Assembly: GCA_045590875.1 (NCBI GenBank)
Contig: JAZNRT010000048.1
Location: forward strand, 1-59,175
From: Acutalibacteraceae bacterium
GTDB taxonomy: Bacteria; Bacillota; Clostridia; Oscillospirales; Acutalibacteraceae
Length of the DNA: 59,175 nt
Reading direction: 5' to 3'
Shown here one piece after another: positions 2,792-59,175 of this stretch (its first letter is position 1; every line of letters starts with the position of its first letter). The position numbers and the translations under genes were made by a program. Under the pieces are notes generated by a model. That model made no database searches. It worked only from the letters and a program-made list of their open reading frames with translations, and was not told the origin of the DNA.

Positions 2792-4099
2792 CTAAAACCT
2801 CTTATATCTTTTCACAGTGCCGTAGCGTTTCTTTTTGGAATTGAGGCGGATGGTGATGATAATGAACACTATAAGTAAAAAGAACAGCCCCGCCAGACCA
2901 AAGAAAAAGTAAACCTTATATTTGATTAGGAAATTTTTTACAGCATCTGAAATTTTAAGCAGCTGTGAGCCCTCAACAGATTCGGCAATCACCGCACCCG
3001 TTGAGCCTATTTTTTCATCGGCATAATAAAGGTTAACCGTGCCCACAACGTCACCCTTTCGCACAGGCGCCTCGGCGCGGGGATTCTTGTAGTCTACCTT
3101 TATTTCCACAGTGCTTGTGTCGGCATCCTTTGGTATAAGGGCATAAACTTCCTTTTCGGGGCGGATGTTGACCGCATCGTAATCCCAAGAATAATCTATG
3201 GGTATGCTGTCGATGGTTTCGGAACTATCAAGTATAGAACGGTAGGTAAAGTTGTTGAAAGCCCAGCGGAAAAGCTCGGCGGTGTCAATAAACTCATAAC
3301 GATTTTCCACCGAATTGTCTTGGGGAGGACAGCCCGTGAGAATGCTGATATAGGTCATTCCCTCGTAGGTGGCGGTGGCGGCAAGACAACGGCCTGCCTC
3401 GGTGGTGTAGCCTGTTTTAAAGCCTGTGGCATATTGGTAATGATAGCCACTGTTGGGGTCTATAAGGAAATTGGTGGCGGCAAGGGTGATATCGTCTTTA
3501 GTAACATATCTTGCCACATTAACAATGTCGGTTATCACGGAATACTGCATAGCATATTTTGTTAGTATACATAAATCTCTTACTGTGCTATAATGATTAG
3601 GGTCGTGCAGACCGTGACAGTTGGTGAAATGGGTGTTCTGCATACCGATTTCTTTAGCCTTCTTATTCATCATTTCCACAAACTCAGCTTCGCTGCCTGC
3701 TATGTGGTCGGCAATAAGAGCAGAGGCATCGGCGCAGGATTTAACCATAGTGTATGCTAAAAGGTCGTGACCGTTAACCTTATCTCCCGCTTCAAAGCCT
3801 GCAATAACCGCTTCGGAATAGCGGTATTCAAGGTATATTTCCTCAGAAACGGTAAGGGTGAGGTCTTCAAGGTTTGGCTCTTCCTCTACAAGCATAATTG
3901 CAACCAGTATCTTGGTTAGGGAAGCGGGGTAAACCTTTTTATCAATATTATCTGAATAAACAATTGTATCGGTATCTACATTATATAAAATTCCCGCTTT
4001 TGCGTGAGTTTCAAAGGTGGGCTTATAGGCATATGCATTGGAAAATGGGATTATCAGCGCAAAAATCAAGGCAAAAGAAAGACTTAATAATTTTTTCAT
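2792..4099 (-). CDS. D-alanyl-D-alanine carboxypeptidase (serine peptidase S11, PBP5-like) with a C-terminal membrane anchor
   Basis: Signal peptide, SLTK (SxxK) and KTG (FKTGYT) motifs, C-terminal TM helix plus a basic tail. GGAGAG RBS. Confidence 0.85.
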   Translation of the reverse strand: MKKLLSLSFALIFALIIPFSNAYAYKPTFETHAKAGILYNVDTDTIVYSDNIDKKVYPASLTKILVAIMLVEEEPNLEDLTLTVSEEIYLEYRYSEAVIAGFEAGDKVNGHDLLAYTMVKSCADASALIADHIAGSEAEFVEMMNKKAKEIGMQNTHFTNCHGLHDPNHYSTVRDLCILTKYAMQYSVITDIVNVARYVTKDDITLAATNFLIDPNSGYHYQYATGFKTGYTTEAGRCLAATATYEGMTYISILTGCPPQDNSVENRYEFIDTAELFRWAFNNFTYRSILDSSETIDSIPIDYSWDYDAVNIRPEKEVYALIPKDADTSTVEIKVDYKNPRAEAPVRKGDVVGTVNLYYADEKIGSTGAVIAESVEGSQLLKISDAVKNFLIKYKVYFFFGLAGLFFLLIVFIIITIRLNSKKKRYGTVKRYKRF

Positions 4100-10918: not shown

Positions 10919-11109
10919 AAAGATATGGTCCTCCTGATTTTCCAAAGCGAAGATATCGCACTGCCGCAGCCCGCAGCAGGGAAAATATAAAAATTAGAAA
11001 TAAATAAAACCGCCTTTGGTACGAGGTGCATAAAGCTACACCTGAAGTGCCGAAGAGGCGGCTGAAATTCAAATTTAGAAAATGGGTTGATAATCCATTA
11101 AAATTTTAG

Positions 11110-27000: not shown

Positions 27001-27045
27001 GAAAAAAGCTTCCGTTTTGGGCACCCTCCGTAAGGAAGGTGCCCC

Positions 27046-27144
27046 AGTTATATTCGCCTTGACACGCGAGTGATATTGCTTCGCAGTGATATGATACTTC
27101 GTATCGTGATATTGTCCTTCGGACAGTTTAAGGGCGAATATAAT
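27046..27144 (+). repeat. internal array: 5 units of AGT(T/G)ATATT, each followed by a short GC hairpin
   Basis: 9-mers at 27046, 27069, 27085, 27106 and 27125. Closed by GGCGAATATAAT (27133-27144), which is complementary to the first unit. Confidence 0.8.
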
Positions 27145-27285
27145 ACCACTGAAACCGCAAGGTTTCAATATCACTTTTGCATGATAAGGCAAAAATAAAA
27201 CTGTGAGCCCTGTCTCGCAATATCACTATTAAAGATTGAGTTTAGATTCTTTGAGATAGGTATTATTCAAAGTATGTAACCCACT

Positions 27286-27317
27286 ATGACACTTTCAAAC
27301 TGAAAGTGTCATTTTTA
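27286..27317 (+). terminator. rho-independent terminator (plus strand) inside repeat copy 1
   Basis: 12-bp stem ATGACACTTTCA / TGAAAGTGTCAT followed by TTTTTAT. Confidence 0.6.
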
Positions 27318-27319
27318 TA

Positions 27320-27361
27320 TTAAAAAAACAAATGGAGAGCACTTCTTTACGAAGTGTCTCC
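27320..27361 (-). terminator. rho-independent terminator of the ior-paaK-ACT operon (minus strand)
   Basis: GGAGACACTTC gtaaa GAAGTGCTCTCC followed by ATTTGTTTTTTT on the minus strand. Confidence 0.65.
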
Positions 27362-27416
27362 ATTTTGACGGAAGCTTTTTTAAAAATTTCTGCTAATAAA
27401 AGTGTGTAGGTTGTTA

Positions 27417-34334: not shown

Positions 34335-34545
34335 ATTTCCTCTAAACCGGCTACCGCAGTTCACTTTGAGGAGTTTATCATTCGGGTATTTCGACTTGAT
34401 GCTTTTGCTTTCACCTTCTCAAGATAGGCTCTCAATGGCTTGTCCCCGATTTGCGGCATCGGGCAAGAAAACAAAATATTAAACTGCATCTCACGGCGAC
34501 GGGCTCGTACAGGATTTGCACCTGTTTCCCCGAAAAGATAGACGT
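34335..34545 (-). promoter_or_regulatory. putative cobalamin (B12) riboswitch
   Basis: Minus-strand core GGGGAAACAGGTGCAAATCCTGTACGAGCCCGTCGCCGTGAG resembles the conserved GGGAA..GGTG.AAATCC...CCCGC..CTGT core. A degenerate B12-box-like AAGCCATTGAGAGCCTATC follows. The downstream genes are typical B12-regulated cargo. Confidence 0.6.
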
Positions 34546-34571
34546 TTTATGTATATTTCAACAATTGGATA

Positions 34572-53028: not shown

Positions 53029-53057
53029 AATATACCATATTCCTCAAAATTAGTCAA
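53029..53057 (-). promoter_or_regulatory. sigma-A-type promoter of the large secreted protein gene
   Basis: On the minus strand: TTGACT, 17 nt, TATATT. Confidence 0.5.
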
Positions 53058-53127
53058 TAAACGACAAGGCTCGTAACACAAAAAAAGAACTACCCGAAGA
53101 GGCGCACTCCGTAAGGAAGTGCGCCTC

Positions 53128-53223
53128 AGTTATATTCGCCCAAGGCGAGTTATATTGCTTCGCAGTTATATTTGGACGTTGTCCAAGTTATATTCGCTTC
53201 GCGAGTTTTATGGCGAATATAAT
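53128..53223 (+). repeat. internal array: 5 units of AGTTATATT, each followed by a short GC hairpin
   Basis: 9-mers at 53128, 53148, 53164, 53186 and 53204 (the last is degenerate). Closed by GGCGAATATAAT at 53212-53223. Confidence 0.8.
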
Positions 53224-53414
53224 ACAACTGAAACTGAAAGTTTCAATATCACTTTCCTTTTTAAAATATCTCGCCACAGGCGAGGAATTTTAAAAAGAAA
53301 ATATCACTGTGAGACCCGTCTCACAATATCACTAATATTTTTATCTCTGAGATAGGTATAAATTCAAAGTATGTAACCCACTATGACACTTTCAACTTGA
53401 AAGTGTCAATTATT

Positions 53415-53460
53415 ATGTAAAAAGAAAATTGGGAGAACACTTCTTTATAAAGTGTCTCCC
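53415..53460 (-). terminator. rho-independent terminator of the dnaK operon (minus strand), part of repeat copy 2
   Basis: GGGAGACACTT tataa AGAAGTGTTCTCCC followed by AATTTTCTTTTT on the minus strand. Confidence 0.65.
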
Positions 53461-53495
53461 AAAGAGTTTCGAGTAGTCCTATTAAAATTCACACG

Positions 53496-58709: not shown

Positions 58710-59175
<466 letters not shown>

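Follow-up and report, generated by a model that had tools for sequence, protein, structure and literature searches.

What kind of element is an array in which one short motif recurs between small palindromes and then recurs again in inverted form? The question was raised by contig JAZNRT010000048.1 of an Acutalibacteraceae bacterium (59 175 nt, analysed at full length and called the window below), which carries two arrays of the nine-nucleotide motif AGT(G/T)ATATT (9-mer) with short palindromes between the units, at positions 27045–27227 (copy 1) and 53127–53333 (copy 2). A preliminary description of this DNA had read the 9-mers as single-stranded sites in an RNA with mutually exclusive folds, and knew of no described motif with such a layout. 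The 5′ half of the array is the catalogued Gut-1 motif (Rfam RF01706), and both window copies prove to be discrete inserts, each within an intrinsic terminator at its apical loop, with imperfect inverted terminal hairpins and 5 bp direct repeats; that the arrays lie within such insertions had been overlooked. The element is best explained, with a probability of about 0.6, as a non-autonomous mobile element that targets terminator loops and carries a folded Gut-1 core.

The motif AGTKATATT (K = G or T) was matched 16 times in the window, against 1.48 matches expected, and none of 100 shuffles reached 16; 11 of the 16 matches fall within the two arrays of ∼180 nt. Exact matches were located at 27046 and 27069 (+) and at 27167 and 27219 (−) in copy 1, and at 53128, 53148, 53164 and 53186 (+) and 53245, 53300 and 53325 (−) in copy 2. 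The repeat and its position had thus been recognised correctly, as had the inverted units, whose coordinates had been shifted by one. The sense units of copy 1 had been counted too generously: two are exact, two match at only eight of nine positions (AGTGATATG at 27085 and CGTGATATT at 27105), and the supposed fifth is degenerate (AGTTTAAGG). Each array continues with GGCGAATATAAT (27133–27144 in copy 1; 53212–53223 in copy 2) and with inverted copies of the unit, AATATCACT. Isolated 9-mers at 11108, 14644, 21536, 22143 and 57324 had no hairpin context and were taken as chance matches.

Insertions in terminator loops

Copy 1 lies in the terminator that follows an ACT-domain gene at the end of a four-gene operon. 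The order is AAAAAAGCTTCCG, TTTTG, the element (27020–27362), TTTTG, A and CGGAAGCTTTTTT, with the following features:

27002–27014 (+): 5′ half of the host bidirectional terminator, A-tract and stem AAAAAAGCTTCCG, complementary to 27369–27381
27015–27019 (no strand): left direct repeat TTTTG (target-site duplication), recurring at 27363–27367 and present as a single copy in the sister empty site
27020–27362 (+): inserted element copy 1, 343 bp, bounded by TTTTG
27019–27044 (+): terminal hairpin P0 with a GUAA loop, directly adjoining the core; it forms the left one of the imperfect terminal inverted repeats
27045–27227 (+): core of copy 1, in which a centre separates four sense from four antisense units, both sets with hairpins (covariance model R1, see below)
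27045–27117 (+): Gut-1 (RF01706) match, 63.6 bits
27047–27058 (+): 5′ strand of the long-range helix P1, GUUAUAUUCGCC, or, in the competing fold, of hairpin 1; pairs with 27133–27144, with covariation
27133–27144 (+): 3′ strand of P1, GGCGAAUAUAAU, covarying and predicted by RNAalifold
27142–27227 (+): 3′ arm, comprising AAUACCACU, AAUAUCACU, a degenerate unit and AAUAUCACU, with three covarying hairpins between them
27266–27312 (+): right-hand module, with a 33 nt block at 27266–27298, the same in both copies, that overlaps a 12 bp hairpin followed by UUUUUAU (27286–27312)
27334–27361 (+): right terminal hairpin, repeating P0 imperfectly in inverted orientation, then a T-run on the − strand
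27363–27367 (no strand): right direct repeat TTTTG
27369–27381 (+): 3′ half of the host terminator, CGGAAGCTTTTTT, pairing with 27002–27014

The corresponding empty site was found in relatives. Their ACT-domain proteins are 87–91 % identical to the one next to copy 1, their contigs retain the same four-gene operon, and the element is absent from the orthologous operon end in sisters L360, L361 and L363–L366; in L363–L366 an intact terminator, AAAGCCTTCC-AAAAC-GGAAGGCTTTTT, follows the ACT-domain gene. The sister metagenome-assembled genome (MAG) JAZQCL01 carries elements elsewhere (L177), so the occupied sites differ between close relatives.

Copy 2 interrupts the terminator of dnaJ, in the order ACTACCCG, AAGAG, the element (53102–53461), AAGAG and TTTCGAGTAGTCC:

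53080–53098 (−): 3′ half of the dnaJ terminator, TTCGGGTAGTTC and TTTTTTT, pairing with 53467–53479
53097–53101 (no strand): left direct repeat AAGAG, recurring at 53462–53466
53102–53461 (+): inserted element copy 2, 360 bp
53127–53333 (+): core of copy 2, 157.8 bits with R1 and 34.4 bits with Gut-1
53129–53140 (+): 5′ strand of P1, pairing with 53212–53223
53212–53223 (+): 3′ strand of P1
53431–53460 (+): right terminal hairpin, similar to an inverted P0 (p = 0.013)
53462–53466 (no strand): right direct repeat AAGAG
53467–53479 (−): 5′ half of the dnaJ terminator, GGACTACTCGAAA

Removal of copy 2 and one repeat in silico gave a 12 bp stem with a 4 nt loop and a T7 run directly after dnaJ (− strand). 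Four sister dnaJ loci (L367–L370, 83–88 % identity) have ordinary intact terminators and no element, and one of them also keeps the downstream synteny, with the same promoter and fn3-domain gene. A set of 80 metagenome dnaJ loci was rejected as a source of empty sites, being too distant (at most 66 % identity). Directly beyond the invaded terminator, a promoter (TTGACT, 17 nt, TATATT; 53029–53057, −) precedes a gene for a 968-residue surface protein; in sister L367 a syntenic TTGACT...TATAAT was found at ∼3695–3725.

The terminal inverted repeats, that is, P0 and the reverse complement of the right terminal hairpin, align over 17–29 nt with mismatches, a similarity seldom reached by shuffled sequences (p = 0.002 for copy 1 and 0.013 for copy 2). 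The regions of the two copies are 81 % identical over ∼400 columns, and their hairpin stems differ by compensatory changes (for example GAUAC/GUAUC against UGGAC/GUCCA); that the variable spacers fold as hairpins, as the preliminary description had it, is confirmed.

Homologues were collected by an exact-pattern scan of one genome per species, which gave at least 120 loci; later counts of homologues are drawn from the matches listed. Nearly all of these come from gut or rumen MAGs of Acutalibacteraceae, Oscillospiraceae, Ruminococcus, Christensenellaceae and unclassified Clostridia, and several MAGs have two or three loci among the matches listed. At least ten further loci repeat the arrangement seen in the window: A-tract and half-stem, P0, core, a further 75–170 nt, then the other half-stem and T-tract. 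Split terminators with 4–5 nt direct repeats were found at L227, L155, L137, L232, L174, L163, L175, L169, L240 and L225, the repeats being, for example, CCCAT (L155) and TTCA (L240). At L213 and L159 the split terminator encloses ∼1.2 kb, consisting of P0, core, a promoter, a PF05635 gene and a small unrelated open reading frame (ORF).

These are features of a miniature inverted-repeat transposable element (MITE): both window copies have a direct repeat and an empty site in relatives, with 4–5 nt repeats, some of them imperfect, elsewhere, and the element is small, has no transposase gene and occurs in several copies, two of them within 59 kb and with unrelated flanks.

The folded core and its homologues

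Gut-1 goes back to Weinberg et al. (2010; PMC2864571), who derived it from 43 human-gut metagenome sequences and rated it as 'certainly an RNA, probably not cis-regulatory' and as 'human gut only, probably a small RNA'. The published model comprises three hairpins and 77 positions; it ends before GGCGAAUAUAAUAUCAC and further AUAUCAC units that the flanks of the seed sequences already hold (PMC2864571). Within the library that could be searched, Gut-1 or RF01706 is mentioned by the 2010 paper only, and by no later paper.

The RF01706 covariance model scored 63.6 bits against 27045–27117 of copy 1 (gathering score 50) and 34.4 bits, below the gathering score, against 53127–53198 of copy 2; copy 2 nonetheless scored 157.8 bits with the extended model R1 and is 81 % identical to copy 1. 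The three covarying tandem hairpins that define Gut-1, joined by the conserved GUGAnAU, were recognised in the window elements, and across the homologues hairpins 2–4 are 96–99 % paired, with changes on both sides. The array therefore belongs to a catalogued family, and the claim of an undescribed motif fails. The published description does not contain the 12 bp closing helix, the mirror-image 3′ arm, P0, the placement in terminators or the insertion signature, nor does it name the hosts, now assigned as MAGs of Acutalibacteraceae, Oscillospiraceae, Ruminococcus and Christensenellaceae. Three features appear to be new: the second half of the fold, the competition between helices, and the insertion into terminator loops with occasional PF05635 cargo.

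An extended covariance model, R1 (174 positions, 56 pairs), was built from 41 homologues. It detected 67 full-length members at E < 1e−20, 66 of them distinct in sequence, and in the window exactly two copies on the + strand, with 155.9 bits (copy 1, E = 2.4e−29) and 157.8 bits (copy 2); no third copy was detected by R1 in the window. The reverse strands of the two copies scored just 36–53 bits, so the orientation of the element is defined despite its mirror-like appearance. The main layout across the at least 120 loci is four sense and then four antisense units; the arms invariably converge and are ∼36 nt apart. Exactly four plus four units were counted in 46 of 79 non-redundant parsed elements. 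A hairpin of at least 7 bp occupies the P0 position in 62 of the 66 homologues and abuts the core without a gap in 54. A variant was seen on a Butyrivibrio crossotus contig (Lachnospiraceae; L219, 1895–2187), where ten units lie in one orientation without a mirror arm and Gut-1 matches twice in tandem (66.8 bits each).

Viral contigs gave chance-level matches only when scanned with a loose three-unit pattern, which was replaced by a stricter one for the genome scan. The plasmid and phage collections yielded 0 plasmid matches and one partial phage match, and only two of 40 candidate loci in IMG/VR were real; the element is thus not typically borne by phages or plasmids.

The fold was assessed by covariation in the 66 distinct homologues. 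In an alignment fitted to the model, which qualifies these pairing statistics, standard pairs occupy 89.8 % of cells against 72.5 % in column shuffles, and in 33 of the 56 pairs both partners vary. Covariation scored 0.42, compared with 0.11 for shuffled columns; none of 500 shuffles scored as high, and slid controls gave 0.02–0.07. The earlier view that constraint acts at the level of a single strand, and not on phased duplex sites, is borne out by these values. Covariation extends to seven hairpins, namely the upstream P0, three of the 5′ arm in addition to hairpin 1, and three of the 3′ arm.

Where the 9-mers themselves stand in this fold differs from what had been proposed. In both the Rfam structure and the present model, AUU opens one hairpin and AGU closes the previous one, the third pair of the hairpin bottoms covaries, and only GAU or UAU (3 nt) is left as a free linker. 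The 9-mers are accordingly predicted to be largely invariant hairpin bottoms with 3 nt linkers, and the description of a single-stranded 9-mer is not supported. Exposure would be limited to the 3 nt linker in the 5′ arm and might extend to ∼7 nt in the 3′ arm by way of a conserved C·A mismatch.

The first unit takes part in a long-range helix. P1 pairs the first 9-mer and its CGCC flank with GGCGAAUAnAAU over 12 bp (G-UUnUAUUCGCC : GGCGAAUAnAA-U); it is 97 % paired, and one of its pairs is A–U in 32, U–A in 23 and C–G in 8 sequences. RNAalifold predicted P1 from a MAFFT alignment that had not been fitted to any structure, so the complementarity noticed earlier between the first unit with its flank and GGCGAATATAAT reflects a genuine, covarying helix. 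Hairpin 1 (AUUCGCC with GGCGAGU) uses the same strand. A C-to-U change in this shared strand is matched by G-to-A changes in both partners, which indicates that the mutually exclusive hairpin 1 and P1 are both maintained. Two conserved helices that exclude each other are characteristic of riboswitch-like RNAs with alternative structures; the likeness is one of mechanism only, and no ligand-binding pocket or expression platform was identified in the element.

The two arms mirror each other. The 5′ arm has UUC, UAC or UUAC loops and an invariant U·G wobble, and the 3′ arm has GAA, GUA, GUAA or GCAA loops and, between an A–U and a U–A pair at the hairpin bases, an invariant C·A mismatch (66 of 66; for example 27149/27168), which is the mirror image of that wobble. 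Counts of G·U against A·C in the variable stems revealed no asymmetry; with mirror-image arms, pairing statistics cannot tell which strand is read.

The 33 nt block of the right-hand module, TTCAAAGTATGTAACCCACTATGACACTTTCAA (27266–27298 and 53364–53396), is shared with the closest homologues only and has no Rfam match. Its 21 nt core was also found in an IMG/VR contig (L121, 1474–1494) without a 9-mer array and as part of two different hairpins. Since the right-hand modules differ between subfamilies and the block occurs without the array in a viral contig, the family is mosaic.

Genomic context, proposed mechanism and related systems

None of 80 elements lies inside an ORF. The upstream gene is co-oriented with the element in 48 cases against 19, its stop codon often lying 10–60 nt before P0, and every adjacent tRNA gene is co-oriented as well. 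Orientation bears no relation to GC skew (35 of 67); because it follows the upstream gene and not the skew, the bias concerns transcription and not replication. The upstream genes are unrelated housekeeping genes (GroEL, EF-Ts, phosphoglycerate mutase, PPDK), and no conserved gene neighbourhood of the element was found. A tRNA-linked subfamily (13–15 of 67 elements) has a same-strand tRNA gene 30–36 nt upstream, with a canonical terminator between the two. At L186 (911–1594) a tRNA-Ala gene, its terminator and the element are tandemly duplicated ∼410 bp apart.

The only enriched neighbour is a gene for a PF05635 '23S rRNA intervening sequence protein', an Avd-like four-helix bundle, directly downstream at about one in ten loci. 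It starts 17–60 nt after the last unit (L127, L128, L147, L159, L161, L162, L213, L216, L222 and L236), and these loci differ in their upstream context; no PF05635 gene was found in the window. Upstream of the next gene, a stretch GGGTATGGGCTTCGCCC...CATTTGTAATACAAAGGCGA recurs after the element at L237, L203 and L231 and after the PF05635 gene at L161 and L213; no Rfam family reached threshold on it, and it could represent a leader or riboswitch-like motif that has yet to be described.

In the explanation preferred here, insertion would proceed by staggered 5 bp cuts of the target, with a putative transposase supplied in trans. The element lies between two terminator half-stems, from which we infer that it forms the tail of the upstream gene's transcript. 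Selection would favour a compact, self-contained bundle of hairpins that lets the two terminator halves still pair, and the mirror layout would allow transcripts arriving from either side of a bidirectional terminator to fold alike. A protein, perhaps the mobility enzyme or an RNA-binding factor, may recognise the 9-mers, which hardly vary, AAUAUCACU of the 3′ arm above all.

Several points weigh against this explanation. No transposase or autonomous partner was found, although no genome-wide search for matching ends was made, and the cargo-bearing versions hold no recognisable mobility gene, only the PF05635 gene and small unrelated ORFs. Identity between the terminal inverted repeats is low (∼70 %), the direct repeats are clean at some loci but only 2–4 nt long or imperfect at others, and the 9-mer arrays are internal and not at the tips, where transposase sites usually lie. 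The tRNA-linked subfamily (∼15 of 67) follows an intact terminator and does not sit in a split one, an arrangement that the insertion model in its present form does not explain. Copies within and between genomes have diverged by compensatory changes, which speaks for long-term structural selection and not for recent bursts of transposition. Equilibrium folding, used to ask whether the genuine insert promotes closure of the split terminator, did not discriminate, the probability of the outer stem being ∼1 with real and shuffled inserts alike. Transcription of the element, and the strand on which it would run, are presumed, and a promoter-like site on the − strand is conserved inside the element, so that an antisense RNA is possible.

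The nearest analogues in mechanism would be MITEs, repetitive extragenic palindromic (REP)-type repeats and insertion sequences that enter the loops of palindromes. The present element resembles MITEs, REP sequences with their mosaic arrays (BIMEs), BOX and Correia elements in being small, non-coding, intergenic and mosaic, with several diverged copies per genome, and shares with them imperfect inverted terminal hairpins, short direct repeats, insertion into hairpin loops and location at the 3′ ends of transcription units. IS1397 and ISKpn1 insert into the loops of palindromic units. REP/BIME sequences reach hundreds of copies per genome and are associated with RAYT, the REP-associated tyrosine transposase of the Y1 type; we know of no cognate transposase for the Gut-1 element. 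It differs from these systems in targeting the loops of intrinsic terminators, not REP units, and in having an interior that is an ordered four-plus-four hairpin array with deep covariation across bacterial families.

Class C group II introns share an orientation-specific association with the intrinsic terminators of unrelated genes. They insert after the terminator hairpin, without target duplication, and are ribozymes of 0.7–2 kb with a reverse transcriptase, whereas the element described here lies inside the loop, is flanked by 5 bp repeats and has no Rfam intron signature. Sponge RNAs such as CsrB/RsmZ and CrcZ, a class to which the preliminary description had compared the array, likewise repeat one short motif between hairpins in a single RNA; their motif stands in loops or free linkers and their partner protein is known, whereas the present 9-mers are mostly stem base, the element behaves as an insertion, and no partner is known. 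The data speak neither for nor against a sponge role.

With 23S rRNA intervening sequences, too, an RNA hairpin whose stem belongs to the host takes up extra sequence in its loop, and this sequence sometimes encodes a PF05635 four-helix-bundle protein. The downstream PF05635 gene of ∼10 % of Gut-1 elements, placed inside the split terminator at L213 and L159, recalls this arrangement, but the host hairpin here is a terminator and not an rRNA helix, and most elements, both window copies included, are gene-less. The parallel is to be taken as a lead, not as a result. A speculative extension, to which we give a small chance, is that Gut-1 elements and 23S rRNA intervening sequences form one class of hairpin-loop invaders with the PF05635 protein (Avd-like, oligomeric, nucleic-acid-binding) as signature factor; the four-plus-four 9-mers would then be a platform for this protein or for the mobility enzyme, and the compact fold would keep the invaded hairpin working.

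Since 2010 Gut-1 has been an orphan among the Rfam families, a 'gut-only' motif without host, context or function. The present analysis adds its hosts, a conserved structure twice as extensive, a pair of competing helices, and the observation that the motif travels in small insertions into the terminator loops of housekeeping genes and is differently arranged after tRNA operon terminators. If the mobile-element explanation is true, the absence of conserved neighbours is explained, the element offers a clean system for studying how a terminator tolerates an insert of 350 nt in its loop, and some 'structured RNA' families from comparative genomics may, as a warning, be modules of mobile elements. 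The recurrent PF05635 cargo is a lead on a very widespread protein family without an assigned role.

Alternative explanations and further observations

The alternative that survives best, although we consider it unlikely, is the original view of Gut-1 as a regulatory small RNA, either free-standing or derived from a 3′ untranslated region. Four AUAUCAC copies would serve as a multivalent protein platform (sponge or scaffold), the switch between hairpin 1 and P1 would gate access to it, and the location in terminators would be incidental. The strong covariation and the stable tetraloop-type loops (GNRA in the 3′ arm) suit this view, and so does the near invariance of the 3′ arm units, which is uncompensated by the sense units, as sequence-specific recognition predicts. 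A + strand terminator follows within 130 nt of the last unit in 27 of 66 elements, and orthologous loci of tRNA gene, terminator and element persist across species with compensatory changes in the hairpins. The downstream PF05635 genes can be counted on the same side; where they start 17–23 nt after the last unit (two loci), read-through on the + strand is required. Yet no promoter is evident, P0 abutting the core without a gap in 54 of 66 homologues, the element has no conserved gene neighbourhood, and no partner protein is known, the window itself being without a PF05635 gene. A small RNA would also leave the direct repeats, the split terminators and the empty sister sites unexplained.

Far less probable is the model of the preliminary description, in which the RNA would toggle between local mini-hairpins that display the 9-mers and helices formed between 9-mers and inverted 9-mers of the two arms. 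Sense and antisense units are complementary, minimum free energy folds of both copies include some inter-arm pairs, and the helix between units U1 and D0 is real. The four nested unit pairs, however, are 89.2 % paired against 88.5 % in shuffles, so that this pairing reflects conservation alone, and the central base is mismatched in 54, 38, 19 and 8 of the 66 sequences. The antisense units are nearly invariant (AAUAUCACU) and the sense units vary between G and U at the centre without compensation; in copy 2 every one of the four sense units has U at the centre, while three antisense units have C. A weak covariation signal was confined to U4:D1, the innermost pair (G–C in 53, U–A in 5; permutation p = 0.002). 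The 3′ arm units are conserved far beyond any pairing requirement. Kissing loops between the arms were considered and rejected, with neither an excess of complementarity between the loops nor loop covariation. Alternative folding thus holds for one unit, through hairpin 1 and P1, and comparative folding, which had been proposed as a check, supports the seven hairpins and P1 but not general inter-arm helices.

A similarly low probability attaches to an antisense transcript as the functional product. A − strand promoter in D2, hairpin D1, D1 and D0 (TTGAAR, 16–17 nt, TGnTATTWT) would drive an RNA of ∼130 nt through the 5′ arm, with P0 as its terminator. Sigma-70-like sites with 10 of 12 consensus matches do lie at the same place in both copies (27140–27168 and 53219–53246, −; TTGAAA, 16–17 nt, TATTAT, with TG in copy 1), 53 of 67 homologues have the extended −10 element TGn and 38 of 61 a −35 element with at least four of six matches, no hairpin is more constant in length and sequence than D1, and an A-tract upstream of P0, a T-run on the − strand, occurs in tRNA-type elements. 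Against this, the −10 element varies (TATTAT, TATTTT, TATTCT) in step with the pairing of P1 and not toward consensus, most P0 hairpins have no − strand T-run, the element tends to be oriented like the upstream gene on the + strand, and the wobble-pair statistics favour neither strand.

Least credible is an array of protein-binding sites in duplex DNA (operator, iteron or centromere-like) that acts on neighbouring promoters, for although one 9-mer is repeated directly and in inverted form, and at 14–20 of 71 loci the last unit ends precisely where a strong sigma-70 promoter begins, duplex binding does not select compensatory spacer palindromes or a covarying 12 bp long-range helix, the units are spaced at 16–26 bp, the neighbouring genes are unrelated, and many copies, window copy 1 among them, lie between convergent genes.

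A few observations concern the remainder of the window. Exact-protein look-ups for its proteins returned none on record, and along its length the + strand has a mostly positive GC skew. A cobalamin riboswitch aptamer was identified at 34364–34553 (−; 44 bits against a gathering score of 31.5), and the start of a 16S rRNA gene lies at 58710–59175 (+), cut by the end of the window.

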